DNA from: a virus
Direction: 5' to 3' (one strand)
DNA length: 64,000 nucleotides
IMG/VR virus record: IMGVR_UViG_3300042287_000745
Coordinates: 1-64,000 of that record
This document shows positions 32,320 through 58,929 of the stretch, piece by piece. Position 1 is the first letter of the stretch; the number at the start of each line of letters is the position of its first letter. A program made the position numbers and the translations under genes. The notes under the pieces are model-generated. The model searched no databases and was not told the DNA's origin. It was given only the letters and a program-made list of their open reading frames with translations.

Positions 32320-32357
32320 ATACTATATACTGTATAATTAAATTGATAAAGACTTAT

Positions 32358-33221
32358 ATGAGCAAAATTAAAGTAGCAGAACTATTTTATAGTATTCAGG
32401 GAGAAGGTCGGTACATGGGTGTTCCTTCTGTTTTCTTGCGCACATTTGGTTGTAACTTTAAGTGCGCAGGGTTTGGTATGCCAAAAGGTCAAGTTAGTAC
32501 AGAAGTAGATGATATTGCATATACGCATATGAATATTGAATCATTCCAAACATATCAAGAACTTCCTTTGGTAAGTACTGGGTGTGATAGTTATGCAAGT
32601 TGGGATCCTAGATTTAAGGGACTATCTCCTCTCCTTGAAGTTGACAGTATCGCAAAATCTATTGTAGACCTGTTACCCGCAAAAGGTTGGCAACAAGAGC
32701 ATTTGGTAATTACTGGCGGTGAACCTTTATTGGGCTGGCAAAAATCCTACGAAGAATTATTAGAACATCCTTTGATGAAATCTTTAGATGAACTAACATT
32801 TGAAACAAACGGTACCCAATCTTTGACTGAGGAATTTACTGATTATCTATTTCAAGAATGGACGCGATTTGGTAGAGATTATGATAAATTAACTTTTTCG
32901 GTTTCCCCTAAATTATCTGTTTCGGGAGAAAAGTGGGAAGATGCAATTAAGCCAGATGTAGTTTGTGACTATCAAAAAATAGGCAATACGTATTTAAAAT
33001 TTGTAGTAGCATCAGAAGAAGATGTCGTTGAAGCAGAAAAAGCAGTAGCGGAATATCGCAAAGCCGGATTTTATGGGCATATTTATTTGATGCCGGTAGG
33101 TGGTATTGAAACCGTGTATTATATGAACAATAAACGAGTTGCAGAAATGGCAATGAAGTTGGGCTGGAGATATTCCGATAGATTACAAGTTCCCTTATTT
33201 AAGAATCAATGGGGAACGTAA
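32358..33221 (+). CDS. queE: 7-carboxy-7-deazaguanine synthase (radical SAM)
   Basis: ELFYSIQGEG, VFLRTFGCNFKC...GCDS (split CxxxCxxC), VITGGEPL, FETNGT, SVSPKL. Confidence 0.9.
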   Translation: MSKIKVAELFYSIQGEGRYMGVPSVFLRTFGCNFKCAGFGMPKGQVSTEVDDIAYTHMNIESFQTYQELPLVSTGCDSYASWDPRFKGLSPLLEVDSIAKSIVDLLPAKGWQQEHLVITGGEPLLGWQKSYEELLEHPLMKSLDELTFETNGTQSLTEEFTDYLFQEWTRFGRDYDKLTFSVSPKLSVSGEKWEDAIKPDVVCDYQKIGNTYLKFVVASEEDVVEAEKAVAEYRKAGFYGHIYLMPVGGIETVYYMNNKRVAEMAMKLGWRYSDRLQVPLFKNQWGT

Positions 33222-33646
33222 TGGAATATAGCTATTCTGATTATGATGCTGATATATATTCTTTGTTGGCAAAAATAAAACAACGTAATAAAAAGTATGA
33301 TTATGTTGTAGGTATTAAACGTGGAGGACTTATTCCTGCGGTATGTTTATCGCATGCTTTAAATATTCCATTATATAATTTAGATTGGTCTACACGAGAT
33401 TGGGCGACGCAGGATATTCGTAATCAAGTATTACAACCCGAATCTAAAATTTTGCTAGTAGATGATATTTGCGACTCCGGCAAAACTCTAATAACATTGA
33501 AAGAACTATATAGTTTTTGTGATATTGATACTGCGGTGTTAGTTTATAATATAGATCAGATACACATACCAAATTATTATGCAAGAACTATTAATCGAAA
33601 ATATCAAAAAGAATTTATTAATTTTTGGTGGGAAGCATATAAATAA
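33221..33646 (+). CDS. Purine phosphoribosyltransferase (Gpt/Hpt-like)
   Basis: VVGIKRGGLIPA, PRPP-binding ILLVDDICDSGKT, C-terminal INFWWE. Confidence 0.85.
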   Translation: MEYSYSDYDADIYSLLAKIKQRNKKYDYVVGIKRGGLIPAVCLSHALNIPLYNLDWSTRDWATQDIRNQVLQPESKILLVDDICDSGKTLITLKELYSFCDIDTAVLVYNIDQIHIPNYYARTINRKYQKEFINFWWEAYK

Positions 33647-33700
33647 CTATGTCGCACAACGGCGACAAATTACAAAACTCATATCCGTGTAAGGAAGGAT
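33638..33700 (+). promoter_or_regulatory. Late promoter TATAAATA plus two leader hairpins upstream of folE
   Basis: TATAAATA 33638-33645; TGTCGC/GCGACA stem 33650-33667; ATCC/GGAT stem 33683-33700 overlapping the AAGGAAGGA RBS. Confidence 0.55.
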
Positions 33701-33706
33701 TCTAAA

Positions 33707-34387
33707 ATGTCATACAACAAAACTAAAACAGATTCAGAATTAGGTCAACAAGTACATGCCTACCTAGTTAAAATGGGAGTTGAAACTCCTACTATTTCTA
33801 GACTAATTGATCGTAAAGAAAAAATTGAGATTATTGAAAAGAATTTCATTAATATTATGGACACACTTGGATTGGACTTATCAGATGATAGTCTAATGGA
33901 AACCCCTAAACGGGTCGCAAAAATGTATGTCAACGAAATATTTTGGGGATTAGATTATGATGCATTTCCAAAATGTACTACGGTTGAAAATAAAATGCGT
34001 TATAACGAAATGGTTGTTGAGCGTAATGTAAATGTTCAAAGTAATTGCGAGCATCACTTTGTAGTTATTGATGGGTTGGCGACTATCGCATATGTTCCTA
34101 AAAATCATGTTCTTGGTTTAAGTAAAATTAATCGTATCGTAGAATATTTTAGTAAGCGCCCTCAAATACAGGAACGGTTAACAGAACAAATTTTTCATGC
34201 ATTATGTTTTATTCTAAATACTGACGATGTTGCTGTATTAATTGATGCTCAGCATTACTGTGTTAAATCTAGAGGTGTTGAAGATACGGGCAGTTCTACT
34301 GTTACCGTACGCCTCGGAGGAGGATTTAAGACCGACCCCGCAGTAAGAAATGAATTTTTAAGTATTGCGAGAATGGGCAAAAAATGA
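33707..34387 (+). CDS. folE: GTP cyclohydrolase I
   Basis: ETPKRVAKM, SNCEHHF, GLSKINRIV, RPQIQERLT, HYCVKSRGV. Confidence 0.97.
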   Translation: MSYNKTKTDSELGQQVHAYLVKMGVETPTISRLIDRKEKIEIIEKNFINIMDTLGLDLSDDSLMETPKRVAKMYVNEIFWGLDYDAFPKCTTVENKMRYNEMVVERNVNVQSNCEHHFVVIDGLATIAYVPKNHVLGLSKINRIVEYFSKRPQIQERLTEQIFHALCFILNTDDVAVLIDAQHYCVKSRGVEDTGSSTVTVRLGGGFKTDPAVRNEFLSIARMGKK

Positions 34388-34896
34388 CTGTTCATGTTAT
34401 GATTGATCTAGAAACAATGTCTACAAGATCACATGCGGCGATTTGTTCAATAGGTGCAGTAAAGTTTAAAGGTAAAGAGATTCTTGATACCTTTTACTGC
34501 ACCATTGATTTAAAAACGTGTAAAGATGTTGGTCTACATATATCGAAGGATACTGTAGAATGGTGGTCTAAACAAAATAAAGAAGCACTAAAAGCTTTAA
34601 CTAAAAATACTATTCCGTTGGACGAAGCATTAACCAATTTTGAGGGTTGGTTCGGTCCTAAGAGTTTACCTATATGGGGCAACGGTGCAGTATTTGATAA
34701 TACAATTCTTACTAACGCATATTTGTATTCCGATAGAGAACCACCTTGGAAATGTTGGGATGATAGATGTTATAGAACAGTTAAGAATTTATTTAACTGG
34801 ATTCCTGCAGATGAAAGGGTCGGCGTTCATCATAATGCTTTAGATGATGCGTTATATCAAACAAACCATTTAATTAAAATTTTAGGCGATTCGTAA
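34384..34896 (+). CDS. DEDDh 3'-5' exonuclease (DexA/Rv2179c-like)
   Basis: MIDLETM, WGNGAVFDN, DRCYRT, HNALDDA. Confidence 0.85.
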   Translation: MTVHVMIDLETMSTRSHAAICSIGAVKFKGKEILDTFYCTIDLKTCKDVGLHISKDTVEWWSKQNKEALKALTKNTIPLDEALTNFEGWFGPKSLPIWGNGAVFDNTILTNAYLYSDREPPWKCWDDRCYRTVKNLFNWIPADERVGVHHNALDDALYQTNHLIKILGDS

Positions 34897-34927
34897 TACA
34901 ATATTAAATTGAGTTGAATAATTAACT

Positions 34928-36292
34928 ATGAATACGTATAAAAAAAGAATAGCATTTTGTCTTAGTGATCAACATACTATTCCTCACGGCGGATTAGGTC
35001 AATTCGCAAAATCCTTTATTGAAACTTTTACTCCTCTCGGATATAAGGTAGATATTATATTAGATAGACCAGCATCTAATACAGGGTTCAAAACATACTT
35101 AGAAGAACAAGGCGCAAGATTTATTTGCGCCGAACCTATTAGCTATACAAACCATACAAAAACATTTATGTTTGAGGATTCCTTTAACTTTGAAAAGATG
35201 GTAAATTTCAGGGAATCCATGATGAAAGCACTTAATGAAAATTTGTATGACATTATTATATGTAATACATTAGAATCATTCCCCGCAATTTATTCATTGA
35301 ATCTACAAAAAAGTATACAAATAATTTATTATACCCATAATGAAAGTATGGTATTTTTAGATGATCGTGAATGGAAAAATGAATTTACGGAATCATTTAA
35401 TGAAACATTTAACGCATTAATGGGCGTTAAAGGTATTACGATTGGTACTCAGACTTTGCGAAATTTATCTGAATTACATAAGTCTAAAATACCAAATGCG
35501 AAATATTTGCCAATACTTATGACTGAGAAAACATTACTACAAAAGCACATTAAGCCTAGAGAAGGTGTATTGTGGATCGGTCGATGGGAACCTAGGAAAA
35601 ATCCAGAAGCATTTATTGAGATGATTCAACAAACAGGATTGCCTGCAAAAGTAATTACAAATGCAACAGGCGCAAAGAAGTTTGAAACTGCATTGCAAGC
35701 TATTAATGCTAAATATGAAATAAGATCAGGAATATATGGACAAGAAAAGGTAGACTTTTTAACGTCTGCGAGAGTAGCATACAATCCTGCGATACGAGAA
35801 AGTTTTGGATTAGCATTTTATGAAACAATAGGGCACATGCCGACCGTTGCAATTGAGGGAATGTCCTGGTTAGGAAATTTTCCTAATACTAACTATTTTG
35901 CAGTACAGAAAAAAGTAGTACCTAAGGTAATCGTTGACCTATATGCAAAGTTTAAGAATTCTGAACTTTGGTATCAACAAGGAGTTCTAGAATCAATACG
36001 AACTTTAGATAGAAATGGTATAGAAGAATGGGAACGGTGTTTTAATTCTTTTGAATATATTAAATCAATTTCTGAAAGAGCTAAAATTAATGAAGTCGAT
36101 GTATCTACGTATAAAGATTTTATAACTTCTCTAAATAGGAAAGCTTTGTCTATTGACGATGTTCGTTCTGTATTGACAAACAAGCATAAATTTAATATAA
36201 TATACACAGATACACAAACCTATATATCTAAAGACAAAAACTTCGTTCCAAAAGAAGAATCTGATAATTCACTAGAAAGTTTATTCGTATGA
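34928..36292 (+). CDS. GT-B (GT4-like) glycosyltransferase
   Basis: PHGGLGQF N-terminal loop, YYTH, WIGRWEPRKNPE, and the ExxxxxxxE motif RESFGLAFYE. Confidence 0.8.
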   Translation: MNTYKKRIAFCLSDQHTIPHGGLGQFAKSFIETFTPLGYKVDIILDRPASNTGFKTYLEEQGARFICAEPISYTNHTKTFMFEDSFNFEKMVNFRESMMKALNENLYDIIICNTLESFPAIYSLNLQKSIQIIYYTHNESMVFLDDREWKNEFTESFNETFNALMGVKGITIGTQTLRNLSELHKSKIPNAKYLPILMTEKTLLQKHIKPREGVLWIGRWEPRKNPEAFIEMIQQTGLPAKVITNATGAKKFETALQAINAKYEIRSGIYGQEKVDFLTSARVAYNPAIRESFGLAFYETIGHMPTVAIEGMSWLGNFPNTNYFAVQKKVVPKVIVDLYAKFKNSELWYQQGVLESIRTLDRNGIEEWERCFNSFEYIKSISERAKINEVDVSTYKDFITSLNRKALSIDDVRSVLTNKHKFNIIYTDTQTYISKDKNFVPKEESDNSLESLFV

Positions 36293-37578
36293 GCCGACAA
36301 TTAGAATATGTTATATCTGGACCAGCATACCTTCGGTTGGGGTCTGAGCAATGCGATGATCCTGAAACATTGCAAATGATTAATGATTTGATTCTTAAAA
36401 CGGTTCATAATAAAAATAATCATCAATTTTCTCTTTTGTATAATGGATTTACAGAAAAGAACTTTGGTAAGAAATTGCAAAAATATAGACCAGCAGTTAA
36501 AAATATTCATGCGGACTCTGGTGGTTTGCAGATTGTTACTCGTGGATTGCAGAATACTCCTGAGACAAGAAACAAAGTATATGAAAATCAGGCAGCATGG
36601 GCAGATATTGGAATGGCATTTGATGAGATTCCGGTAAAATCTACTTCTGCAAGTGGCGTATCCTCAAAAATTGATACTAAACGTAGATATGTTGATATGG
36701 AAAATTTTGAGACATATGCAAGACAGACAGGTAAGAATGTTAAAGATCAAATTTTAAAATTTGATTCTGTTAAAAGTGATTGTCGTCCTTTTGTTATTAT
36801 TCAGGGGTCAGGGCAAGATACGTATCAGCAGTGGACTGAATATATGTTAGATGAAATTCCTAAAGAATTGCATCATCGTATTGGCGGTGTCGCTATGGGA
36901 TCGGCTGCATTGGGTATGGGACCACTCGAAGATGTAAAGCGAGCATTTTATGTAAATGCTGTACCTTTTGAAAAACCGTTTCATCTACACGTACTAGGGG
37001 TAGGTGCATTAAAACGCATATTGCCGTATTTACTTTTTAGCCAAACTGGTCTTTATAAAGATATTGATATATCATATGATTCTACAACACATTCTATGTC
37101 ATTGGATAACGGATTATTTTACTTCTCACATTGTAAAAAAGGTACACCTGGAGACTATGGTGGATCATCTGTAAAAATGGGTAGACCATATTCTAATATC
37201 TATCGGACTGTTACTAACGAAATTAATTCAGTATGTGGTACAGATTACTCCCCTGAAGAATATCATAAATTGATGAATATTTCAGTCGGTGAATATTTAG
37301 AAAAGGGTGGTAAATTTATAGATATTATGCGTGCTCGACTTTCCTTTATTTTAACAAATGTGCATAATTTTACTATGGATGTCTCAAACTTAATGAATTC
37401 TAAAGATGAATTTTTACGTTTCTGTAGAGATAAGAATTGTGAAAATGAATATAGTACATTATTCGATGTCAAAACATCTGAGGATTTTATCTATTGGGAA
37501 AAACACGTAGGAAAATTTATGGATTCATCTCCGGTAAATATTATTGCACCATCATCTCTTGAGGACTTATTTGCATGA
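36289..37578 (+). CDS. dpdA: DNA 7-deazaguanine transglycosylase (DpdA/TGT-like)
   Basis: TGT-barrel motifs HADSGGLQ, AFDEIP, VIIQG, HLHVLGVG and SYDSTT, inside a folE/queD/queE cluster. No obvious bacterial Tgt zinc site. Confidence 0.8.
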   Translation: MSRQLEYVISGPAYLRLGSEQCDDPETLQMINDLILKTVHNKNNHQFSLLYNGFTEKNFGKKLQKYRPAVKNIHADSGGLQIVTRGLQNTPETRNKVYENQAAWADIGMAFDEIPVKSTSASGVSSKIDTKRRYVDMENFETYARQTGKNVKDQILKFDSVKSDCRPFVIIQGSGQDTYQQWTEYMLDEIPKELHHRIGGVAMGSAALGMGPLEDVKRAFYVNAVPFEKPFHLHVLGVGALKRILPYLLFSQTGLYKDIDISYDSTTHSMSLDNGLFYFSHCKKGTPGDYGGSSVKMGRPYSNIYRTVTNEINSVCGTDYSPEEYHKLMNISVGEYLEKGGKFIDIMRARLSFILTNVHNFTMDVSNLMNSKDEFLRFCRDKNCENEYSTLFDVKTSEDFIYWEKHVGKFMDSSPVNIIAPSSLEDLFA

Positions 37579-37994
37579 ATTTTGCTAGCTCAATTATTAA
37601 TACATCTGACATAATTATGAAACAAACAAGTTATATTTGGGTAACATTCCAAAAAGAGGGTATCCACAAATATCCTGCTGCGGCAACGGATCCTAAATTA
37701 GCAACAGGCGATTGGCTCGATGTTAGTTTCTTAAGTACACCACATCGGCATATATTTCATTTCAGAGTTGAGATGCAGGTATTCCATGATGATCGAGATG
37801 TAGAATTTATACAAGCAAAACGAATAATGGAACGATGGTATTCTGATGGCACATTGCAGTTAGATTATAAATCTTGCGAAATGATGGCTAGAGAGCTATA
37901 TGGTCGCCTAAATACTATGTGGCCTAATAGAAATTATGTTATTGAAGTATCTGAAGATAACGAAAACGGTTGTAAACTATATTTTGGAGAGTAA
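37575..37994 (+). CDS. QueD-like T-fold protein with LxxxHRHxF motif (DpdL-like, putative CDG decarboxylase)
   Basis: FLSTPHRHIFHFRV, DRDVEFI, SCEMMA, VSEDNENG. Start may be at 37617. Confidence 0.7.
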   Translation: MNFASSIINTSDIIMKQTSYIWVTFQKEGIHKYPAAATDPKLATGDWLDVSFLSTPHRHIFHFRVEMQVFHDDRDVEFIQAKRIMERWYSDGTLQLDYKSCEMMARELYGRLNTMWPNRNYVIEVSEDNENGCKLYFGE

Positions 37995-38000
37995 ATACTG

Positions 38001-39173
38001 ATGCGTAAATTGATATACTGTGGACTTGAGCCATACGAAGGCCGTTATACTTTGCAGCTTCAGCAATGGAACGAAGCGGCATTTAAACGTAGAGGCATCA
38101 ATTATGAAATTATCCATGGTGATACTTTGGATAATTCTAAGTCAATTGTAACCGGGCAAGTATTGGATGCACATGGTCGTAGTTATTATTCTTTGACACA
38201 GATGGCAAAACTTGTTGCAAAGATGAAAGCCGGCGAAATTCAGTATGATGACATAATTTTCTTCGAAGATATGTTTACTCCTGGTATGGAAGTATTACCT
38301 TACATTATGGATCAATGTGGTTGGGAACATCAGCCTAGAGTTTTTGTTAGGTGTTTAGCTCAGACAATTGATCCCGACGACTTCTTACATGTCTGGGATA
38401 TGCAAGGATGGATGGCACACTATGAGAAGATGGTTAATACTTGGGTTAGTGGTGTATTAGCATCAAATGAGGAGATGGTTGCTCATATGAAAATTGCGGG
38501 TTGGCAAGTGCCTATGTATAATATCTCAGGATTAGCATTTGATCAAAATGAGGTTCGTAGTCGAGTAAAGAATATTCGCCCATTCAACGAACGTAAAAAT
38601 CGAGTAGTGTTCTCTGCAAGATTCGATCAGGAAAAGCAGCCGGGATTCTTTATGGATATTATAGAACATTTTGGGCCTAAATCGGATATTGAATTCGCGG
38701 TGTTGTCGGGTGGCCCTTTACGTAGTAATGACGACTCCTATATAGACCGAGCAGTTGAATTAACTAAGAAGCATCCGAATTTTAAAATATACGAAAATCT
38801 TAAAAAGGATGAGTATTATGAATTGCTTGCAGATTCCAAAGTATTATTTAATTGTGCCTTGCAAGATTGGGTAAGTAATACTGCATCAGAAGCAGACGCA
38901 TTAGGCACAAATTGTTTGTTCCCCGCCTACAGATCATTTCCTGAAACATTCGCAAATGATCCCGAATGTTTATATATTCCTTGGTCTAAAGAAGATGCCA
39001 CAAATAAATTAGAGTGCTTATTGGAAACTCCTAGAAACGGCATTGGCACATTGGCTAACTGGACCTCAGGAACTATTGACAGATGCCTCGATATTATGTT
39101 AGGATTAGATAATGGTAAGTGGAATAGAAATCAATCTAATTATAGAAATCATACATCTGAGACCAAGTATTAA
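38001..39173 (+). CDS. GT-B (GT4-like) glycosyltransferase
   Basis: VVFSARFDQEKQPGFF, EYYELLADSKVLFNCALQDWVSNTASEA, FPAYRSFPE. Confidence 0.75.
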   Translation: MRKLIYCGLEPYEGRYTLQLQQWNEAAFKRRGINYEIIHGDTLDNSKSIVTGQVLDAHGRSYYSLTQMAKLVAKMKAGEIQYDDIIFFEDMFTPGMEVLPYIMDQCGWEHQPRVFVRCLAQTIDPDDFLHVWDMQGWMAHYEKMVNTWVSGVLASNEEMVAHMKIAGWQVPMYNISGLAFDQNEVRSRVKNIRPFNERKNRVVFSARFDQEKQPGFFMDIIEHFGPKSDIEFAVLSGGPLRSNDDSYIDRAVELTKKHPNFKIYENLKKDEYYELLADSKVLFNCALQDWVSNTASEADALGTNCLFPAYRSFPETFANDPECLYIPWSKEDATNKLECLLETPRNGIGTLANWTSGTIDRCLDIMLGLDNGKWNRNQSNYRNHTSETKY

Positions 39174-40148
39174 ATGACTAAGACTGTTATAGTTACAGGC
39201 GCCGCCGGTTATATCGGTGGCGCTATTTGCATAGAACTTATTACCAAAGGGTATTATGTAATCGGTATTGATCGCCGAGCATTACCTTCGCATTTGGAAA
39301 TATATTGCGATGAATTTATCCAATCTGATTTTATTGGTTATGCATCATTAATGCAAGTAGAAAAACAACCATGTGCAATTATACATTGTGCGGGTACAAG
39401 TTTAGTTGGACCTAGTATACAAAACCCCGAAGAATATTATGAAAACAATATTCAGAAAACTTTAGAATATCTAAAATATATTCGCAAACGTTCTGCAAAT
39501 ACCAAATTTATTTTTAGTAGCAGCGCCTCTGTGTATGGGAATCCTAATACAGATGTACCAATAACAGAAGAACAACCAACTAATCCTATTTCACCTTACG
39601 GTGAATCTAAGTTAATGATTGACCGGGCTTTGCATTCTTTTAATATCGCATATGGTATGCAATATGTTTCTTTTAGATATTTTAATGCATGCGGAGCAAT
39701 TGAGAACAGTATACATGGGCAGGAGGCAAACGCTTCACATATTTTTCCTAGAGTGTTTGAAGCAATTTTAGAAAATCTCCCATTTACATTAAACGGAAAT
39801 GATTATAATACTAAAGATGGGACCTGTGTTAGAGATTATGTTCACGTATCAGATATTGCTAGCGCACATGTAATGGCAATAGAAAAAAATATACAAGGAA
39901 TATATAATATAGGATCTATCAGAGGTTACTCTAATCTGGAGATCATCAAAGAAGTATCTAAATGTTTAGGTAAAAACTTATCTATTGAAATTGCAGATAA
40001 GCGTATAGGTGACCCTGCATATCTAATTGCAGATTCTAATAAATTATTTTTAGATGCGGGTTGGACAGCAAAAAAAGATTTACGTACTATTATTAAAGAT
40101 TTACATGACTGGTACTTCCCAGAGGCCTCCGGCGCTCATCCCTCTTAA
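39174..40148 (+). CDS. galE: UDP-glucose 4-epimerase
   Basis: VTGAAGYIG, FSSSASVYG, YGESK, FRYFNACG, DGTCVRDYVHV, RIGDPAYL. Confidence 0.92.
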   Translation: MTKTVIVTGAAGYIGGAICIELITKGYYVIGIDRRALPSHLEIYCDEFIQSDFIGYASLMQVEKQPCAIIHCAGTSLVGPSIQNPEEYYENNIQKTLEYLKYIRKRSANTKFIFSSSASVYGNPNTDVPITEEQPTNPISPYGESKLMIDRALHSFNIAYGMQYVSFRYFNACGAIENSIHGQEANASHIFPRVFEAILENLPFTLNGNDYNTKDGTCVRDYVHVSDIASAHVMAIEKNIQGIYNIGSIRGYSNLEIIKEVSKCLGKNLSIEIADKRIGDPAYLIADSNKLFLDAGWTAKKDLRTIIKDLHDWYFPEASGAHPS

Positions 40149-40183
40149 AATATTCTGCGTGTCTTCTTTTAAATATGGAGACA
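40121..40183 (+). ncRNA. Candidate preQ1-I-like riboswitch (H-type pseudoknot) plus RBS-sequestering hairpin upstream of queD
   Basis: P1 AGAGG/CCUCU with a loop ending CAUC, an A-rich tail UAAAA, and loop GCGC complementary to tail GCGU. UGUCUUC/GGAGACA then covers the GGAG RBS. Confidence 0.55.
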
Positions 40184-40189
40184 AATAAA

Positions 40190-40675
40190 ATGACAAACAA
40201 AAAATTCTTTTCTACAAAAACATACAGACAAATCGGGCCAGTTGCTTACCGGCAATGGCGCGCCGATTCTCATTGCAATTTAATTCATGGTTATGCTATG
40301 AGTTTTCACTTTGAATTTGAAGCAGATACGTTAGATGCTCGCAATTGGGTTACTGACTTCGGAGGACTAAGACCACTTAAGGATAGTCTAGAAGAGTGGT
40401 TCGACCATACTTTACTTGTCGCTGAAGACGATCCTATGCGAGACGAACTACTGCACTTAGGTAAAATTGGCCTGGCTAAAATTACAGAAGTAGAACGAAC
40501 CGGTTGCGAAGGCATTGCTGATTTTCTATATGAATATATTAACACTATCTTTTTACCTAATTGCGGCGCAGAAGAAGCAAAACGGGTCTGGTGCTGCCGG
40601 GTAGAGGTCCGGGAAACAGATTCTAATATGGCTGGCAGAAACGGTCACCGAGAAGATAATGAATTTATGGCATAA
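40190..40675 (+). CDS. queD: 6-carboxy-5,6,7,8-tetrahydropterin synthase
   Basis: CxxxHG motif HCNLIHGY, WVTDFG, FDHTLL, VEVRET. ATG 40190 follows the GGAG RBS. Confidence 0.9.
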   Translation: MTNKKFFSTKTYRQIGPVAYRQWRADSHCNLIHGYAMSFHFEFEADTLDARNWVTDFGGLRPLKDSLEEWFDHTLLVAEDDPMRDELLHLGKIGLAKITEVERTGCEGIADFLYEYINTIFLPNCGAEEAKRVWCCRVEVRETDSNMAGRNGHREDNEFMA

Positions 40676-42221: not shown

Positions 42222-43936
42222 TAAAATTTAAGACTATACGTTGGAAAAACTTCTTATCAACAGGAGCACAATTCACAGAAGTTGGATTAGATAAATCAAC
42301 TACCACATTAGTTGTTGGTGAAAATGGTGCCGGTAAAAGCACCATTCTTGACGCATTGTGTTTTGTTTTATTTAATAAACCATTTCGTAGTATCAATAAG
42401 CCTCAATTACTCAATACGATCAATGCTAAAAATTTACTAGTAGAGTTAGAATTTAATATTGGTCCTAAAGAATATAAAATTGTTCGGGGTATTAAACCTG
42501 GTATCTTTGAAATTCATGTGCAGAACGTGTTATTGAATCAAGATGCCGCAGCGAAAGATTACCAAAAATATTTAGAAGATACTATTCTAAAATTAAATTA
42601 TAAATCATTTACGCAGATTGTAATTTTAGGTAGTGCATCTTTTACTCCCTTTATGCAATTGCCGTTGGGTCATCGAAGAGAAATTATTGAGGATATTTTA
42701 GATATTCAAATATTTACAGTAATGAATTCGGTATTGAAGAATAAACAAACTGAAATAAAAAATTCAATTTTGGATATAGATTCTAAAGTAGAGTTTGGTA
42801 AAAGCAAGGTTAAATTACAACAAGACTACATTAAAACCCTTGAAGATGATATACAAAAACGGGCAAAGGATACTACAGTATTAATTGAGACTGCAAATAT
42901 TGCAATTAACGGTTTTACTACAGAGATAAACACATTAAAATCGCAAGTGGATGGATTAAAACTTACAATTTTAGATGATGATGAAACAAAGAAAAAAGAA
43001 AAACAAATACTTAAAGTACTGGACAAACTTAAAGAGAAGTCAAAGAAAGTAAATTCTGACATCACATTCTATCTTAACCACGATGATTGTCCCACATGCA
43101 ATCAAAATTTAAGTGAGGACTTTAAGGATAAAACGATTACGGAACATAAGCATAAATCGTCTGAGGTTGCTGATGCTATAAACGATTTAGAAAACCAAAT
43201 AACCGATATTAATTTGCGATTAGAAAAAATAGATGTAGTTAAAACTAAGATTGCAGAATTGAATGAATCTATTATTGAATTTAGCTCTAGTTTAATTGCC
43301 GAACAAAACTATATTAAAAAATTAGCAAAAGAGATTCAGGATAGTGCTACCAATACTACCAACATAGATGAGGAAAAAACTAAATTAAAGGCATTGGCTA
43401 AAGATGTTATTCTTTTGTCTGAAGAAAAAGGTAAGCAAACAGAAGAAAAACACTATTTTGAGATTGCGGGTATACTTTTAAAAGATACCGGAATTAAAAC
43501 TAAAATTATTAGACAATATTTGCCAATCATTAATAAATTAGTAAACAAGTATTTAGTGGCAATGGATTTCTTTTGTCATTTTGAATTGGATGAAACATTC
43601 AATGAGACAATAAAGTCTAGGCATCGAGATGAATTTTCGTACGCATCATTTAGTGAAGGTGAAAAACAGCGTATTGATTTGGCGCTATTATTTACTTGGC
43701 GAACAATTGCAAAAATGAAAAATTGCGCTAGCACAAATTTGCTATTACTTGATGAGGTTTTCGATTCATCTTTAGATGCAAATGGTACAGATTATGTGAT
43801 GAACCTTATAAATACTTTAGGTGACGAGACTAATGTATTTGTAATTAGTCACAAGGGAGATCTTCTATTTGATAAATTTAGAAGTGTTATAAAATTTGAG
43901 AAACACCAAAATTTCTCTAGAATACAAGGAAGTTAA
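42218..43936 (+). CDS. gp46: Recombination ATPase gp46 (Rad50/SbcC-like)
   Basis: GENGAGKST, zinc hook CPTC, FSEGEKQRIDLA, LLDEVFDSSLD, VISHK. Confidence 0.97.
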   Translation: MIKFKTIRWKNFLSTGAQFTEVGLDKSTTTLVVGENGAGKSTILDALCFVLFNKPFRSINKPQLLNTINAKNLLVELEFNIGPKEYKIVRGIKPGIFEIHVQNVLLNQDAAAKDYQKYLEDTILKLNYKSFTQIVILGSASFTPFMQLPLGHRREIIEDILDIQIFTVMNSVLKNKQTEIKNSILDIDSKVEFGKSKVKLQQDYIKTLEDDIQKRAKDTTVLIETANIAINGFTTEINTLKSQVDGLKLTILDDDETKKKEKQILKVLDKLKEKSKKVNSDITFYLNHDDCPTCNQNLSEDFKDKTITEHKHKSSEVADAINDLENQITDINLRLEKIDVVKTKIAELNESIIEFSSSLIAEQNYIKKLAKEIQDSATNTTNIDEEKTKLKALAKDVILLSEEKGKQTEEKHYFEIAGILLKDTGIKTKIIRQYLPIINKLVNKYLVAMDFFCHFELDETFNETIKSRHRDEFSYASFSEGEKQRIDLALLFTWRTIAKMKNCASTNLLLLDEVFDSSLDANGTDYVMNLINTLGDETNVFVISHKGDLLFDKFRSVIKFEKHQNFSRIQGS

Positions 43937-43937
43937 T

Positions 43938-44534
43938 ATGGCAAATGATACTTGGCAATTACAAACGCATACGGTAAATACGTATTGTTATTATTCAGGA
44001 GTATTTGATGATGAAATGCTTGACGATATTGTTACGTTGGGCGATTCTCTTTTATTAAAAAATGCAGAGGTTGGTGGAAATTTTGATGTGCCAGGTGGCG
44101 AAAATGCGGATATTCGAAAAACAACTATTGGTTGGATTCCTACAAACGATCAAAATGCTTGGCTTTATAGAAAATTAACAGACAGCATCTTTCAGGCAAA
44201 TTCAAAATGGTTTAATTATGATCTTAACCATATTGAATCACTACAATTTTCAGTATATAATGAAGGTGATTTTTATGATGCGCACGTTGACCATCATTAT
44301 CAAGGCGCAGGGCAATATCCTAGAAAATTGAGTTTTACTATGCAATTATCAGATCCTTCGGATTATGAGGGCGGCGATGTAAATTTAATTACGTCTCAAA
44401 CCCCATTTGCAATTCCAAAAGAGCGAGGAACAATTACATTTTTTCCTTCGTATACTTTACATGAAGTTAAACCTGTTACCAAAGGAATCCGAAAAGCATT
44501 AGTTGGCTGGATTCACGGCCCTAATTGGAAATAA
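43938..44534 (+). CDS. 2OG-Fe(II) oxygenase (prolyl-hydroxylase/PKHD type)
   Basis: FYDAHVD (HxD), RKLSFTMQL, YEGG, FPSYTLHEVKPVTKGIRKALVGW. Confidence 0.9.
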   Translation: MANDTWQLQTHTVNTYCYYSGVFDDEMLDDIVTLGDSLLLKNAEVGGNFDVPGGENADIRKTTIGWIPTNDQNAWLYRKLTDSIFQANSKWFNYDLNHIESLQFSVYNEGDFYDAHVDHHYQGAGQYPRKLSFTMQLSDPSDYEGGDVNLITSQTPFAIPKERGTITFFPSYTLHEVKPVTKGIRKALVGWIHGPNWK

Positions 44535-44863: not shown

Positions 44864-47074
44864 ATGATAACCGATTCTAAGTCTATATTAGCAAAACTTT
44901 TAGCATCAGAAAACATTCAAGTAGAACATAAGAAAACTTCTACCGCATACTTCGATACCAAAAATCGGGTCATGGTCATTCCTATTTGGAAGTCCATGAC
45001 TCCGTTCTTATACGATTTGCTTCTAGGCCATGAGGTTGGGCATGCATTGTTTACCCCACCTGACGGCTGGCACGATCAAGTATTAGATGGTACCAAGAAG
45101 GGGTTCAAAACATATTTAAATGTTGTCGAAGACGCTCGCATCGAAAAATGTATTCAAGAAAAGTTTCCTGGGTTGAAGGTATCCTTTAAAAAGGGATATG
45201 CTGAACTAATGCAAAAAGACTTTTTCGGAATTCAGAAAAATGAATGGGATATCAACACACTGCCTTTAATTGATCGTATCAATTTACACTATAAGGTCGG
45301 TTCATATTTAAACGTGCAATTCAAAGATGATGAACAATATTTTTTAAAACGAATTAATGGTATTAAAACGTGGGATGACGTTGTTTCTGTATCTAACGAA
45401 TTGTATGAATATGGTAAAACAGAACCAAAATTGCAAAATTTTGATGATGTCGATTATGTTGAGGATATGGATGATGATTTTGATTCGGAAGATGATACTT
45501 GGGAAGAAGTGGAATCTGATTCTGATTCCGATAAAAAGAGCAAAAAAACAAAAAATAGACGAGGATCGGATATTGGCGAGTTTGATCCAGAGTCAGTAAC
45601 TGATAAATTTTTTCGGCAAATGGAAAATCAACTTGTCGACGATTCAGTAAAGCCATACCTTTATGTCAATATGCCTGAGGTTGATATTAGTAAAGTCATT
45701 GTACCGTATAAAACAATTCAGAAATTCTACACAAAATTTCGGTATCAAGATTATACACTTAATGTTGATACTTTGGATGCATTAGCAATTACACAATCAG
45801 AAAAAGCAAAAGAACATTTGTATAAAAAGTTCTTAGAATCGAATAAGAAATATATAGGTTATTTGGTTAAAGAATTTGAGCTTAAAAAGAATGCTAAACA
45901 ATATGCAAGGGCATCTATTGCTAAAACTGGCAAATTGGATATGAAAAAAATTCATTCTTATAAGACTAATGATGATCTGTTTAAACGAATGACAATTGTC
46001 CCAGACGGTAAATCTCATGGGTTATTGATGTTCGTAGATTATTCTGGGTCTATGGGTGAAAGTATTCAAGCAACAATTGAGCAAACCCTAGTTTTGGTAA
46101 TGTTCTGCAGAAAAGTAAATATTCCATTTCGTGTATATGCATTCACTGATCTACAGAATGATTCAATTAATATTGAACTAGGTATGGAAACTCCAAATAC
46201 AGAGGACCCGGCTACATATTTTAGAGCTCGTAGTGTGAATGGATTGGGTAGATTTTCAAAACGAGTAAATGATTTGCATGTTGATGATGTTGCATTCAGA
46301 TTACGCGAATATGTATCAAGCGAAATGAATTCAAATGATTTTAAAGATGCAGTTAAATATTGGTTGCTTGTGGGAGAATTGATGACTTCTCGGTATAACC
46401 ATAGGGGTAGCACAAATCCTGCGGTTAGTGTACATTTAAGAAATTCAGAATTTGAACAATTGAATGGCACCCCTTTGAATGAAGCCATTATTTCTGCAAT
46501 CGATATTACGGAAGCTTTTAGAAAACAATATAAATTGGATGTCGTCAATACAGTATTTTTAACCGACGGCGATTCAAACGATACGGGGGCAGTATATAAA
46601 GAAAATGATAAATATCTCAATTACTACGATAAGTATGGGAATAATTGTAATGTCATTATTCGGCACACTAAGACTATGCTGGAAGGTAAGAAAATTCCTA
46701 ATGCGGAATTAACTACTGGTTTGCTAGATTTACTGAAAAAAGTATCCGGTGCAAATACAATTGGTTTTTTTATTGCTCCTAGATTTGGAAGGAACGTTGT
46801 TATGAACAGAATTAGTAAAACGGGTAAATACGTTCAGAATTTTGATCAGCAATATAAAACGGCAAAACAACAGAAATTCTTCATGTTAAATGATGTTGGA
46901 TATGATGATTTCTATATTATTCCTGGTGGAAAAGATTTGGAAATCACTGAAGATAATTTGGTTGTTTCGGCAGGAGCCAAAAAGACAGAGATTAAAAACG
47001 CATTTATGAAAATGCAAAAAAGCAAATCTATTAATCGAGTTCTTTTGAGTAGATTCGTTAGTAAAATTGCTTGA
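44864..47074 (+). CDS. CobT-like protein: N-terminal HExxH metallopeptidase-like domain plus C-terminal VWA domain
   Basis: LLGHEVGHAL, NVVEDARIE, MIDAS DYSGSM, GTPLNEA, FLTDGDS. Confidence 0.85.
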   Translation: MITDSKSILAKLLASENIQVEHKKTSTAYFDTKNRVMVIPIWKSMTPFLYDLLLGHEVGHALFTPPDGWHDQVLDGTKKGFKTYLNVVEDARIEKCIQEKFPGLKVSFKKGYAELMQKDFFGIQKNEWDINTLPLIDRINLHYKVGSYLNVQFKDDEQYFLKRINGIKTWDDVVSVSNELYEYGKTEPKLQNFDDVDYVEDMDDDFDSEDDTWEEVESDSDSDKKSKKTKNRRGSDIGEFDPESVTDKFFRQMENQLVDDSVKPYLYVNMPEVDISKVIVPYKTIQKFYTKFRYQDYTLNVDTLDALAITQSEKAKEHLYKKFLESNKKYIGYLVKEFELKKNAKQYARASIAKTGKLDMKKIHSYKTNDDLFKRMTIVPDGKSHGLLMFVDYSGSMGESIQATIEQTLVLVMFCRKVNIPFRVYAFTDLQNDSINIELGMETPNTEDPATYFRARSVNGLGRFSKRVNDLHVDDVAFRLREYVSSEMNSNDFKDAVKYWLLVGELMTSRYNHRGSTNPAVSVHLRNSEFEQLNGTPLNEAIISAIDITEAFRKQYKLDVVNTVFLTDGDSNDTGAVYKENDKYLNYYDKYGNNCNVIIRHTKTMLEGKKIPNAELTTGLLDLLKKVSGANTIGFFIAPRFGRNVVMNRISKTGKYVQNFDQQYKTAKQQKFFMLNDVGYDDFYIIPGGKDLEITEDNLVVSAGAKKTEIKNAFMKMQKSKSINRVLLSRFVSKIA

Positions 47075-47132: not shown

Positions 47133-48404
47133 ATGTCTAGAACGCATTACAGTGAGCAGCAACGTACCGAATTAGTTATTAAATTAGAAGAAGAATATGG
47201 TAGCAAAGTATCTAAAGATGAAATTTTAGAATTTTGCGATATGCGAAATTTGCCGAATCCGCATTTTTTAGTTTCTCGAAAAGATATTAAGGTCAATAAA
47301 GTATATGACCTTAGTCTATTAAATTCTTCGACTATTAGCGATCCTTATATGAATGATACACCGATTGTAGCGCCCACCCCATCCGCACAAATTTTGCCTT
47401 TGAAGCAACGTAAAATGGTTTCAGAGATTGATAACTCTGTGCCAGCAAAAGATAATACGTATGTCCCGTTTGGCTTTTTTAAGCAACTGGAACAAATTTT
47501 AAAATCAAGAACATTTTATCCGGTCTTTATTACTGGTCTATCGGGTAATGGCAAGACTACGATGGTCGAACAAGTGTGCGCAAAACTTGGGCGAGATTGT
47601 ATTCGGGTAAATGTTAGTATCGAAACAGATGAAGAAGATCTAATCGGTGGTAATACATTGCTAGATGGCAATGTTGTTTATCGTGAAGGGCCGGTACTAA
47701 TGGCTATGCGCCGCGGCGCAGTTCTTTTGATCGATGAAATTGATCGAGGTTCAAATAAACTAATGTGTATGCAAAGTATTCTTGAGGGCAAGCCATTGTT
47801 CAATAAGAAAACTGGCGAGATGATTTATCCCGCGGCAGGATTTACTGTAGTTGCTACCGCAAATACTAAGGGTCGAGGCACAGACGATGGTCGCTTTATT
47901 GCAGCACAAATTTTGGACGAGGCATTTCTTGAACGCTTCCCTATTACGGTAGAACAAGAGTATCCGTCGACTACTGTTGAACGAAAAATTCTGCAAAATA
48001 AAATGGAATTTTTTGGTAAAGTTGATTCTGAATTTTCTGAGAAACTTATTACGTGGGCAGACATTATTCGTAAGACTTTTCTTGAGGGCGGCGTAGATGA
48101 AATTATCAGCACTCGCCGATTGGTAAATATCGTGCAGGCGTACTCAATTTTTAACAATCAAGAAGATGCGATTCAATATTGCATTAATCGATTCGACGAT
48201 GATACTAAGTCCGCATTTATGGATTTGTATCAAAAAATGAGCAATCCGTTGCGTCAGGAAACTACTTCGGAAACAGTATACGATGATACTAAGTCCGCAT
48301 TTATGGATTTGTATCAAAAAATGAGCAATCCGTTGCGTCAGGAAACTACTTCGGAAACAGTATACGATGACGGCGAACCTCTTATTAGTAGTCCACAAAT
48401 TTAA
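47133..48404 (+). CDS. cobS: CobS/MoxR-like AAA+ ATPase
   Basis: GLSGNGKT, LLIDEID, ATANTKGRG, EAFLERF, ISTRRL. Phage cobS-type family, not necessarily involved in cobalamin synthesis. Confidence 0.88.
   Translation: MSRTHYSEQQRTELVIKLEEEYGSKVSKDEILEFCDMRNLPNPHFLVSRKDIKVNKVYDLSLLNSSTISDPYMNDTPIVAPTPSAQILPLKQRKMVSEIDNSVPAKDNTYVPFGFFKQLEQILKSRTFYPVFITGLSGNGKTTMVEQVCAKLGRDCIRVNVSIETDEEDLIGGNTLLDGNVVYREGPVLMAMRRGAVLLIDEIDRGSNKLMCMQSILEGKPLFNKKTGEMIYPAAGFTVVATANTKGRGTDDGRFIAAQILDEAFLERFPITVEQEYPSTTVERKILQNKMEFFGKVDSEFSEKLITWADIIRKTFLEGGVDEIISTRRLVNIVQAYSIFNNQEDAIQYCINRFDDDTKSAFMDLYQKMSNPLRQETTSETVYDDTKSAFMDLYQKMSNPLRQETTSETVYDDGEPLISSPQI
48196..48370 (+). repeat. Perfect 84-bp in-frame tandem duplication
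   Basis: DDTKSAFMDLYQKMSNPLRQETTSETVY occurs twice; ACGATGA at 48196, 48280 and 48364. Confidence 0.97.
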
Positions 48405-48412
48405 TTGATAAA

Positions 48413-48438
48413 GTATAGCGTACGCAAGTACGCTATAC
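48413..48438. other. Perfect 11-bp hairpin with GCAA tetraloop
   Basis: GTATAGCGTAC-GCAA-GTACGCTATAC between cobS and the sugar island. Confidence 0.85.
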
Positions 48439-48446
48439 CTACGTAT

Positions 48447-49280
48447 ATGCACACTAATGAAAATACTTATGATACGTTTATTCCTAGATGGTTTGGCCGT
48501 TTAGGTAACAACATACAACAAATATCTAACGGAATTTATTTCTGCAGAGATAACAAAATACATTTTACATCACCAGACCACCCCATGGTCGAAGCCATTG
48601 ATTTGAATTTTGGTGACAATAATTTTAGCATACCGCCAAATTCTCACAATTGGTTTTATTTCTTTGATGGGTCCGATGCTGACTTTAGTACAAATACCGA
48701 TGATTTAAATTTTCAACGCAAGCATATCTGCGAAGAATATATATTACCTAAGCTTAAAATTAATCATATCGAATTAGATAAACCATTGCCCGACGATGTG
48801 TTAGTAATTCATATTAGAAGCGGAGACTTATATACGAATTGGCCATCTAGCCACCCACAGAATCCTTTTGCATATTATGTAAAATTATTTAATATGTATC
48901 ATGGTAAAGTAATTTTTCTTGTAGAAGATCTACATAATCCGATTGTAGATTATTTTTCTAAAATTTCTACTGATACAAGAGTGTGTTCTATTGAAGATTC
49001 ATATTTACTTTTACTACAAGCAAGAAACATTGCATCATCGGGAGCGGGATCTTTTGTAATGGGCGCTGCTCTTTGTTCTAAAAATATTAAAAAGTTTTAT
49101 TGTACCAATCTTTGGTTGCCTAATAGTCTAAACCCTACGATGCTAAAAGATCATCTTGAGGTATACTGCGCACACCTAGTAGGTGATAAATATATAAAAA
49201 TTGGCGAATGGCATTGCTCCACTGAAACCATTGATAAGATTTTAAATTATAACGAAGATATATTATTTGGGAGATTATAA
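48447..49280 (+). CDS. GT11-like (alpha-1,2-fucosyltransferase-fold) protein
   Basis: GRLGNNIQQ and VIHIRSGD are GT11 signature motifs; also PFAYY. Start placed at the ATG after the hairpin. Confidence 0.65.
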
Positions 49281-49281
49281 C

Positions 49282-50930: not shown

Positions 50931-50939
50931 GATAGTAAA

Positions 50940-53047: not shown

Positions 53048-53378
53048 AAGCATAGAAGCAATTATTAAAAATACAGTTGATCGGGTATGTCAAGAAGATA
53101 TGCCGGATTCGGAATATATCGCAACAGATAATCTAGGCGAGATTATCGAGAAATTAGCAATTATTCATATTCGTATGTGGATGTTAGAAGATGCGATGCA
53201 AGCAGCAAAAACAGATTCTGAACTTGCCGAATTGAAGCGCAAGGTTGATATTTGCTTTAAGGTTAAGCGCCCTAAGTATGTACAAGCAATTAACACTATG
53301 GTAGATGATGCAATTAGAACAAACAAATCATTAAAAGAAGATTCTGTAAAATTATATAAAGGCGTAGATAATGGCTAA
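53031..53378 (+). CDS. DUF4254-like helical protein
   Basis: LGEIIEKLAIIHIRMWMLED pattern seen in sugar clusters. Confidence 0.5.
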   Translation: MSTLGESIEAIIKNTVDRVCQEDMPDSEYIATDNLGEIIEKLAIIHIRMWMLEDAMQAAKTDSELAELKRKVDICFKVKRPKYVQAINTMVDDAIRTNKSLKEDSVKLYKGVDNG

Positions 53379-58001: not shown

Positions 58002-58273
58002 AATATAAGTTTAATGAGGGTGATCTGTTGAAAGATTTTCAGGCATATGTTGATGCGACATACAATCAACACTACGCCCTAAACAAATATCAAGCAACAG
58101 AATTTATTATTGATAACGGACATGGCGTAGGATTTACTGCGGGCAATGTAATGAAATATGTCCAAAGGTACGGAAAAAAAGCAGGAAGGAATAGACAAGA
58201 CTTGCTAAAGGTGTTACACTATGCATTGATGCTGTTATATGTGCATGACATTGAAACTAAGGAGACTAAATAA
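57986..58273 (+). CDS. DUF3310-like conserved T4-like protein
   Basis: TYNQHY, GNVMKYVQRYGKK, DLLKVLHY. Confidence 0.7.
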   Translation: MAQEIEYKFNEGDLLKDFQAYVDATYNQHYALNKYQATEFIIDNGHGVGFTAGNVMKYVQRYGKKAGRNRQDLLKVLHYALMLLYVHDIETKETK

Positions 58274-58929
58274 TGCAAATAAGTAAAGAAACAATTGATA
58301 TTCTAAAGAACTTCGCCTCTATTAATTCTAACCTAATGATTCGAAAAGGTAAGACTCTTTCGACTATTAGTACAGGTAAAAACATTTTTAGTAAAGCGGA
58401 TGTAACTGAGGAATTTCCTCTCGAAGTAGCAATTTATGATTTGAACTCATTGCTTGCGCTTTTAACTGTTATGGAAAATCAAGAAGTAGATTTTGGTGAA
58501 AAAAGTTTAACGATTTCTAAAGGCAATGGTAAATTTGAATATTTTTATGCTAGCCCAAGCGTTATTGTTGCCGCACCAGAAAAGAGCATTGAGTTAGATT
58601 CGCATTACGAATTTACACTTTCTGCAGATGATGTGCAGATGATTATGAAGGCAGCGGCAATTACCGGTGCGCCAACTATCACAATTTCTAGTAAAGAAGG
58701 CAAGGTTTCTCTTAATATCGGCGATAAGAAAAACGATACTGCAAATACATATAAAAAATCAATCGGAGATAGTGAACATACGTTTGAATGTCATATGGCG
58801 GTTGAGAATTTTAAAATTATTCCCGACGCATATAATGTTACTATTTCTAAAAAGAAAGCATTTCAATTTAAACATGCTACTAAGGTAATTGAATATTTTA
58901 TTGCAATGGAACCCGATTCAGTAGTTTAA
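58273..58929 (+). CDS. gp45: Sliding clamp gp45
   Basis: ETIDILKNFASIN, AIYDLNSLL, YFIAME. Confidence 0.92.
   Translation: MQISKETIDILKNFASINSNLMIRKGKTLSTISTGKNIFSKADVTEEFPLEVAIYDLNSLLALLTVMENQEVDFGEKSLTISKGNGKFEYFYASPSVIVAAPEKSIELDSHYEFTLSADDVQMIMKAAAITGAPTITISSKEGKVSLNIGDKKNDTANTYKKSIGDSEHTFECHMAVENFKIIPDAYNVTISKKKAFQFKHATKVIEYFIAMEPDSVV

Follow-up and report, generated by a model that had tools for sequence, protein, structure and literature searches.

The 64-kb window examined here (positions 1 to 64,000 of the IMG/VR virus record IMGVR_UViG_3300042287_000745) is part of a 74.7-kb virus contig that is 41% complete and comes from a T4-like myovirus. Within this window we found an island of ten genes in which enzymes predicted to make and insert 7-deazaguanine are interleaved with two glycosyltransferases (GTs), which we call GT_A and GT_B, and with the UDP-glucose 4-epimerase GalE. 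Two kinds of phage DNA modification, each already known, come together in the island, and no description of a sugar-decorated deazaguanine island was found in the literature we searched. To our knowledge, the sugars of phage DNA sit on pyrimidines, and known deazaguanine marks bear small groups. That the GTs belong functionally to the deazaguanine system is well grounded. As to what they do there, we lean slightly toward a putative chemistry in which a DpdA3-type DNA guanine transglycosylase, tethered to the sliding clamp of the phage, would swap guanine for a deazaguanine, and the GTs would add one or more hexoses.

Open reading frame (ORF) calls and scans against Pfam, PHROG and NCBIfam resolved the island (32343-40675) into ten translationally coupled genes on the + strand, in the order QueE, a phosphoribosyltransferase (PRTase), FolE, a DEDD exonuclease, GT_A, DpdA3, DpdL, GT_B, GalE and QueD (Table 1). 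Neighboring genes overlap by 4-13 bases at four junctions (QueE/PRTase, FolE/exonuclease, GT_A/DpdA3 and DpdA3/DpdL), and the start of GalE directly abuts the stop of GT_B. An earlier, sequence-only reading of this DNA had proposed a single coupled operon of this composition, with one GT overlapping dpdA and the other abutting galE, and both proposals agree with what we found. The QueE reading frame, whose likely start is the ATG at 32358, encodes a protein 48% identical to QueE of Synechococcus phage BUCT-ZZ01, QueD is 70% identical to its ACP17 counterpart, and the exonuclease has a homolog within the BUCT-ZZ01 island. Because the identical gene order recurs in BUCT-ZZ01 and in the IMG/VR contigs L015-L022, we conclude that the arrangement is not a matter of chance.

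FolE, QueD and QueE make 7-carboxy-7-deazaguanine (CDG) from GTP by established family chemistry. By its TGT motifs, its homology and the FolE, QueD and QueE encoded alongside it, the window DpdA belongs to the DpdA3 subfamily, and base insertion into DNA is predicted for it. In tblastn searches it aligned at full length, with 29-38% identity, to proteins of BUCT-ZZ01, ACP17, and Xanthomonas and Stenotrophomonas phages, and its alignment to Vibrio nt-1/VH7D-type proteins covers 63% of the latter; some of the DpdA3 proteins matched in this way are annotated as queuine tRNA-ribosyltransferase. The catalytic motifs HADSGGLQ (D76) and YDSTTH (D264) are invariant in the alignment of its family.

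DpdA3 and DpdL were defined in Cellulophaga phage phiST by Hutinet et al. in 2023, in a system where guanine is completely replaced by 2'-deoxy-7-deazaguanine (dDG); DpdL was proposed, not proven, to be the CDG decarboxylase that yields 7-deazaguanine, and it carries the signature LxxxHRHxF where QueD has CxxxHGH (PMC10516641). The window DpdL motif, LSTPHRHIF, matches this signature, and the protein is 55% identical to its ACP17 homolog and 34% identical to that of phiST. It occurs together with DpdA, FolE, QueD and QueE, and no QueC was detected in the contig (41% complete), nor did the complete genomes of BUCT-ZZ01, ACP17 or PA5oct yield one; the control phage Moby was positive. These results support the view that the island is a QueC-less system of FolE, QueD, QueE, DpdL and DpdA3, so that the deazaguanine island recognized in the sequence-only reading was upheld by family scans, motifs and DpdA3 homology. 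The phiST system (PMC10516641) has the same set, also lacking QueC, and both systems have a DEDD-type exonuclease nearby (in phiST, a DEDDh exonuclease adjoining QueD); as in phiST, complete replacement of guanine is predicted. Unlike the window, phiST has no GT_B, GT_A, GalE or PRTase and carries MazG and a P-loop kinase instead, and its base is unglycosylated dDG rather than the sugar-bearing base that we consider here. We also observed DpdL as the C-terminal part of a longer protein in Vibrio phage Bakedbeans (L010:7239-8390, 383 aa) and in Chryseobacterium phage MA9V-3 (L014:7431-8312, 293 aa); the N-terminal parts of both had no Pfam match.

Two enzymes of the island, DpdA3 and GT_A, end like the DNA polymerase of the same phage. 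The extreme C termini read ATLEGLFG in the polymerase, SSLEDLFA in DpdA3 and NSLESLFV in GT_A, and the contig's 23,316 ORF residues contain the pattern L[ED]xLF three times, against an expectation of ~0.02, each time at one of these C termini. In T4, gp43, gp55 and gp33 bind the gp45 clamp through such C termini (PMC2988020). The tails described here resemble those "toolbelt" ligands (PMC2988020) in having an acidic-hydrophobic epitope at the extreme C terminus, in standing behind a variable linker and in matching the polymerase of their own phage; they differ in being borne by enzymes of DNA modification (a transglycosylase and a glycosyltransferase), for which binding is predicted from the motif.

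The tail of DpdA or of DpdA-like proteins covaries with the polymerase tail from phage to phage. The polymerase and DpdA end in PSLDDLFE and TTLDELFE in ACP17, in SSLESLFG and QSLEELFG in Xanthomonas phage X1, and in SSLEDLFGW and NSLDDLFG in Moby, and in a set of metagenomic loci introduced below as group 2 the corresponding tails are ...FNNLFDW.. and ...FGKLFEE. in the polymerase and the DpdA-like protein. For BUCT-ZZ01 the comparison covers GT_A (GSLEDFFND) and DpdA (ASLDSFFD), whose tails match one another. Across the GT_A family, [STG]L[ED]xLF stands behind a variable linker in 22 of 25 homologs, down to 47% identity. We infer that DpdA3 and GT_A are putative clamp ligands on newly replicated DNA, and the presence of such a tail on GT_A argues for its action on replicating DNA. 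The study of phiST makes no mention of a clamp (PMC10516641), and no title or abstract in the literature searched links DpdA with one. Some group-2 sequence also encodes a ~350-aa protein without family assignment that has a polymerase-like SLEDYF tail (L027:14755-15813). A third candidate ligand in the window, the ORF at 48405-49280 ending in EDILFGRL, was ruled out, as this ending is not kept in a 59%-identical homolog.

The identity of GT_A and GT_B as glycosyltransferases rests on their predicted folds, and support at the level of sequence is weak. The best Pfam scores, 17.2 bits to PF13439 for GT_A (cut-off 28.5) and 22.2 bits to PF00534 for GT_B (cut-off 26.4), fall short of the family thresholds, and the E-values of the two ORFs are a weak 5e-3 and 1e-4, while some close homologs bear a precomputed PF00534 assignment. 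GT_A bears GRWEPRKNPEAF, and GT_B bears ARFDQEKQPGFF and YRSFPETF; the short motifs singled out in the sequence-only reading, R(W/F)(E/D)xxKxPxxF in both proteins and P...FPE in one, are thus present. We built AlphaFold models from homolog alignments (n = 25 for GT_A and n = 22 for GT_B), which reached a mean confidence (pLDDT) of 88.3 for GT_A and 79.5 for GT_B. Both have a GT-B/GT4-type predicted fold, so that the earlier assignment to GT4 stands at the level of fold and lacks a Pfam GT match above cut-off. GT_A carries in addition a ~75-residue C-terminal extension that leads to its clamp-type ending.

Among the structural matches listed, the neighbors of the two models were BshA, SenB, PimA, MshA, sucrose-phosphate synthase, WaaG, LmbT and tetrahydrobiopterin (BH4) glucosyltransferase, with VIA Z-scores of 22-26. 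GT_A aligned to the glycosyltransferase 6eji at Z 25.9 (root mean square deviation 3.5, 341 residues aligned), to PimA at 25.4 and to BH4 glucosyltransferase at 24.6. GT_B aligned to sucrose-phosphate synthase (6kih) at Z 25.3 (root mean square deviation 3.5, 339 residues aligned), to BshA at 24.0 and to BH4 glucosyltransferase at 21.7. Foldseek placed both models at ~1e-11 from BshA and MshA, and returned BshA (7.5e-12) and SenB for GT_B. Residues of the donor site are conserved: R219/K224 and E291-x7-E299 are invariant in the 25 homologs of GT_A, and the GT_B site comprises R207/K212 and D289-x7-E297, the first position of the latter pair being E in distant relatives. Invariant in the GT_B family are E10, R15-Y16-T17, R207..E211-K212.P214 and E297. 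The folds show that both proteins are predicted nucleotide-sugar transferases; the fold does not tell the acceptor.

The sequence-only reading had also likened the GTs to the queuosine mannosyltransferase QTMAN/GTDC1 (DUF3524) and suggested comparing them with that enzyme and with T4 alpha-glucosyltransferase (AGT). The first likeness was not supported: neither GT had a DUF3524 match in Pfam at E <= 0.01, sequence-profile searches of the PDB at E <= 1 gave no QTMAN/GTDC1-family chain and insignificant GT4 matches only, and QTMAN was not among the structural neighbors of either model in the matches listed, which are generic GT4 enzymes. T4 AGT (1y6f; Z 19.7 and 17.9 for the two models) did align, as did the GT of phage HY126 (9iqz; Z 17.9 and 20.6), and both ranked below the GT4 enzymes. 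HY126 is a member of the arabinosyl-5-hydroxycytosine phage group (PMC13326640).

If the GTs serve the deazaguanine system, they should be found in its company elsewhere, a co-occurrence that the sequence-only reading had suggested examining for dpdA, and for GT_B this proved true: outside the neighborhood of DpdL or DpdA-like genes it is almost never encountered. A GT_B-like gene stands beside DpdL in six isolated phage lineages, namely BUCT-ZZ01 (full synteny; GT_B 63% identical), ACP17 (in the order DpdA, GT_B, DpdL), Xanthomonas phage X1/BUDD, the PA5oct group, the Sinorhizobium jumbo phage Phosso and Burkholderia phage BCSR5. The same kind of neighborhood, with DpdL or a DpdA-like gene next to it, recurs in ~90 IMG/VR loci and three bacterial genomes. 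A scan with the window GT_B yielded a close set of 34 IMG/VR loci, in which DpdL lies immediately upstream of GT_B in all 31 that have upstream sequence. A scan with GT_B of the PA5oct/Phosso/ACP17 type added a wider set of 56 loci at 32-46% identity; 48 of these have DpdL at a distance of no more than 8 kb, and seven of the eight exceptions have no upstream sequence. FolE (40), QueE (38) and DpdA-like genes (40) are common in the wider set. GalE, put forward earlier as the partner of the GTs, behaved differently in the two sets, since a GalE-like short-chain dehydrogenase/reductase (SDR) lies downstream of GT_B in most of the close loci and only 5 of the 56 wider loci have GalE.

The reverse association does not hold. 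GT_B was absent genome-wide from the DpdL phages phiST, RHph_I1_18, Bakedbeans, D479 and Ahp1, and also from MA9V-3. The DpdL-less DpdA3 phages Moby and pf16, in which the positive controls were found, likewise lack it across their genomes. Since phiST has DpdL without GT_B, GT_B is an add-on downstream of DpdL. GT_B depends on a DpdL/DpdA context and DpdL is independent of GT_B, and this one-way dependence is the pattern expected of an enzyme acting on the DpdL product or on the inserted base.

The close set divides into eight loci with the full window order (L015-L022) and the remainder (L023-L048), our group 2, in which a ~500-aa protein takes the place of DpdA3. This protein is a DpdA homolog (hhalign against DpdA3: probability 93.9%, E 1.5e-7) whose family bears DSGGFQ. 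Between GT_B/GalE and PRTase/FolE/QueE, the group-2 islands carry a DegT aminotransferase, extra SDRs, radical S-adenosylmethionine/B12 enzymes and a protein of the Asp/Arg beta-hydroxylase family; examples of such tailoring genes lie at L036:8264-18173, L027:11996-15813 and L031:12156-13487. These embedded genes hint at tailored sugars. The PRTase recurs in BUCT-ZZ01, in PA5oct, in 18 of the 56 wider loci and in most group-2 loci that extend far enough downstream. PA5oct has a 172-aa ORF resembling a shortened epimerase/SDR between DpdL and the PRTase (L007:8660-9178), which may be the remnant of a GalE-like gene.

The Atlas clusters of GT_B are almost purely viral, and at least 7,996 metagenomic homologs exist. 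In the three bacterial genomes, all alphaproteobacterial, the GT_B-like gene adjoins a DpdA-like gene. The island of Ochrobactrum sp. MYb379 (L115:641-13823) is flanked by an integrase, has a Vut_1/YhhQ-type transporter between the DpdA-like and GT_B-like genes, and also encodes a GmrSD nuclease and two proteins of 853 and 411 aa without assigned function. It contains no FolE, QueE or DpdL, and it may serve the cell as a DNA-modification system for which the deazapurine is imported.

Together, these observations suggest a sequence of steps. CDG made by FolE, QueD and QueE would pass to DpdL, with no QueC to divert it, and DpdL would decarboxylate it to 7-deazaguanine, as proposed for phiST. 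DpdA3, riding on the gp45 clamp, would exchange guanines just behind the replication fork, which would account for reports of complete replacement in DpdA3 phages. GT_B would take a hexose from a UDP-sugar and attach it to the deazaguanine, in DNA or still as the free base, with the neighboring GalE interconverting UDP-glucose and UDP-galactose to supply it, and the clamp-tethered GT_A would add a sugar, the first or the second, on new DNA. The PRTase would probably salvage the excised guanine to GMP, or alternatively activate the deazapurine base. Candidate acceptors are N2, as in huimycin and dapiramicin, and the nucleophilic C7/C8, whose electron-rich character would allow a C-glycoside. 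A precedent for the former is HuiG, a GT4-type enzyme that glycosylates free 7-deazaguanine at N2 (PMC7439116; bioRxiv 10.64898/2026.04.15.718813).

Extended to a widespread group of phages, the proposal is in our view a serious possibility that falls somewhat short of probable: abundant uncultured T4-like phages, BUCT-ZZ01, ACP17 and PA5oct-type jumbo phages would carry, in place of guanine, a 7-deazaguanine bearing sugar, which might be linked as a C7/C8 C-glycoside or as an N2-glycoside and might include tailored or multiple sugars, installed at the fork by a clamp-docked transglycosylase and glycosyltransferase. Several observations weigh against a sugar in the DNA. The predicted DpdL product, 7-deazaguanine, offers no hydroxyl for a conventional O-glycoside, and the DNA of the phiST group, the only DpdL phages with mass spectrometry, contains plain dDG (PMC10516641); that group lacks GT_B. 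GT_B has no clamp motif, GalE is scarce in the wider set, and many of the syntenic loci, coming as they do from related phages, do not count as independent observations. Both GTs have generic folds, whose closest solved neighbors among the matches listed use small molecules and not DNA, and the DNA-directed comparisons, T4 AGT and the HY126 GT, score lower (Z 18-21). Finally, the same phage has a large separate cluster of GDP-sugar and GT genes, and sugar genes are therefore abundant in it regardless of the island.

The known systems nearest to the proposed one share parts of it. The T-even glucosyl-hydroxymethylcytosine and arabinosyl-5-hydroxycytosine systems (PMC13326640) likewise use phage enzymes of GT-B fold, UDP-sugars and a noncanonical DNA base, and their GTs can act serially. 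Their acceptor, however, is a hydroxyl-bearing pyrimidine made at the nucleotide level, whereas here it would be a base-exchanged deazapurine without an evident hydroxyl, and the window GTs are GT4-like and not of the AGT or BGT families. The huimycin/dapiramicin pathway (PMC7439116) pairs a FolE/QueD/QueE cluster with a GT4-type GT for 7-deazaguanine, a parallel drawn from function and not from the HuiG sequence; it is an actinomycete secondary metabolism with QueC and an O-methyltransferase, and it involves neither DpdA nor DNA. Queuosine glycosylation by QTMAN/GTDC1 and QTGAL also puts a sugar on a nucleic acid base derived from 7-deazaguanine, but the acceptor is the cyclopentenediol in tRNA, and our searches revealed neither DUF3524 nor a specific similarity in GT_A or GT_B.

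An unlikely alternative, though the best of those we considered, is that making or delivering the base requires GT_B, and perhaps GT_A as well, while no sugar is left in the DNA, so that the virion would contain plain dDG. The sugar could be a handle or mask on the free deazapurine or on a pterin intermediate, or GT_B could be an obligatory partner of DpdA or DpdL. Such a role would suit the nearest solved structures among the matches listed, the small-molecule GT4 enzymes BshA, SenB, MshA, LmbT and BH4 glucosyltransferase, as well as the lack of a clamp motif on GT_B. It would also suit the finding that dDG was absent from E. coli given ACP17 dpdA and dpdL alone, without the GT_B-like gene that sits between them in ACP17, after which the authors suggested that other enzymes may be needed (PMC10516641). 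Yet phiST achieves fully substituted dDG DNA without any GT_B (PMC10516641), the polymerase-like clamp motif on GT_A points to DNA, and the whole sugar-tailoring pathways of the group-2 islands would be costly for a group that is merely passing.

We consider it rather improbable that GalE and the two GTs are auxiliary sugar functions of the ordinary sort, serving the host envelope, virion proteins or a polysaccharide, whose genes happen to share the operon. The GT4 fold is generic, both GT Pfam matches lie below cut-off, and the window has a second large sugar cluster (Gmd, FkbM, SDR, DegT aminotransferase and GT10). However, GT_B adjoins DpdL/DpdA across phage lineages that are unrelated and in bacterial islands with different surrounding genes, it is absent from the phages without DpdL (Moby and pf16), its Atlas clusters are almost purely viral, and the conserved clamp-type C terminus of GT_A also speaks against such a role.

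Far less credible is a pterin pathway in which FolE and a 6-pyruvoyltetrahydropterin synthase-like enzyme would feed GTs that make pterin glycosides like the cyanobacterial BGluT, with a target other than DNA. BH4 glucosyltransferase does rank high among the structural matches (Z 24.6 with GT_A, 21.7 with GT_B), but these scores tie with those of many other GT4 enzymes; the closest isolated relative, BUCT-ZZ01, infects Synechococcus, but the hosts of phages with this GT_B family also include Pseudomonas, Acidovorax, Xanthomonas and rhizobia. QueE, DpdL and DpdA3 play no part in such a synthesis, and the clamp motif on GT_A also speaks against it. Glycosylation of hydroxymethyl-pyrimidines in DNA in the T-even manner, independent of deazaguanine, is the least plausible of all. 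Both models align to T4 AGT (1y6f) and the HY126 GT (9iqz), but the contig showed no gene of the ThyA/dCMP-hydroxymethylase family (PF00303); nor did the complete BUCT-ZZ01 and ACP17 genomes, which therefore lack the usual acceptor, and GT_B tracks DpdL/DpdA and not pyrimidine-modifying genes.

All genes of the contig lie on a single strand, with a GC content of ~33%. A UvsY-like mediator, a DNA helicase and a gp55-type late sigma factor precede the island; SbcD/SbcC-like (T4 gp47/46-type) nuclease subunits follow it; and the gp45-type clamp, the clamp loader and RegA lie at 58.3-61 kb of the window. In a megablast search of the island against a phage collection, no near-identical phage record matched. 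A preQ1-I-like riboswitch before queD (40121-40192) was rejected as a candidate: Rfam matched nothing at E <= 1 between 31500 and 41500, and the proposed element overlaps with galE at the 3' end of that gene. The 2-oxoglutarate-Fe(II) oxygenase downstream of the island could in principle generate a hydroxyl acceptor; its adjacency to GT_B is not conserved. The second sugar cluster, a large GDP-sugar/GT set at 48405-57268, includes several ORFs without a family.

Table 1. Genes of the island and other features of the contig, in window coordinates unless stated otherwise
Feature	Position	Strand	Basis or setting
QueE-like radical-SAM CDG synthase	32343/32358..33221	+	phrog_2076 at 2.4e-52; partial QueE TIGRFAM matches
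Small purine (xanthine/guanine-type) PRTase	33209..33646	+	PF00156 at 3.6e-12; NF006613 at 2.8e-9
FolE, GTP cyclohydrolase I	33707..34387	+	NF006824 320 bits (cut-off 202); PF01227 at 3.7e-60
Rv2179c-like DEDD 3'-5' exonuclease	34384..34896	+	PF16473 at 4.4e-46
GT_A, putative GT-B/GT4-fold glycosyltransferase, 454 aa	34928..36292	+	Predicted fold
DpdA3-type DNA guanine transglycosylase (TGT superfamily), 429 aa	36289..37578	+	phrog_10773 at 8.9e-95; weak Tgt TIGR00430 match
DpdL, QueD paralog, 139 aa	37575..37994	+	LSTPHRHIF motif
GT_B, putative GT-B/GT4-fold glycosyltransferase, 390 aa	38001..39173	+	Predicted fold; synteny
GalE, UDP-glucose 4-epimerase	39174..40148	+	Equivalog TIGR01179 286.9 bits (cut-off 262.3)
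QueD, 6-carboxytetrahydropterin synthase	40175..40675	+	PF01242 at 7.4e-16; phrog_2389 at 4.7e-41
DUF2452-like ORF, 167 aa	40676-41179		Below cut-off; directly 3' of QueD, position kept in L015-L020 and L022
2-Oxoglutarate-Fe(II) oxygenase	43896-44534		phrog_61; between island and GDP-sugar cluster
Large peptidase-family protein	44864-47074		phrog_459; between island and GDP-sugar cluster
CobS-like AAA ATPase	47133-48404		phrog_249; between island and GDP-sugar cluster
GDP-mannose 4,6-dehydratase (Gmd)	49267-50295		Second sugar cluster
FkbM methyltransferase	50295-50930		Second sugar cluster
SDR epimerase/reductase	50940-51881		Second sugar cluster
DegT-type aminotransferase	51878-53047		Second sugar cluster
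GT10 fucosyltransferase-like protein	54342-55220		Second sugar cluster
gp45-type sliding clamp	58273..58929	+	phrog_223 at 7.6e-69
Clamp loader genes	58964-59905 and 60186-60626		3' of gp45-type clamp
Family-B DNA polymerase	Contig 65350-67845 (L049:1350-3845)		Just past window end

A glycosylated deazaguanine may account for two earlier observations, the failure to reconstitute dDG from ACP17 dpdA and dpdL alone and the modified guanine of unidentified chemistry in the DNA of PA5oct (PMC12191111), a phage that bears the trio of DpdA-like protein, GT_B and DpdL. Tethering to the clamp could in turn answer how DpdA3 attains 100% replacement, and the hypermodification machinery would be the first of its kind to be tethered to a clamp. 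Cultured carriers of the module exist in BUCT-ZZ01, ACP17, PA5oct and Xanthomonas phage X1, and given the number of metagenomic GT_B homologs, the mark could be common in nature. If our proposal is true, DNA bases would gain a new class in the glycosylated deazapurine, which would also be the first sugar-bearing purine analog in any genome, and it would bear on restriction and CRISPR, on type IV nucleases (GmrSD and END among them), on the chemistry of sequencing and on synthetic biology.

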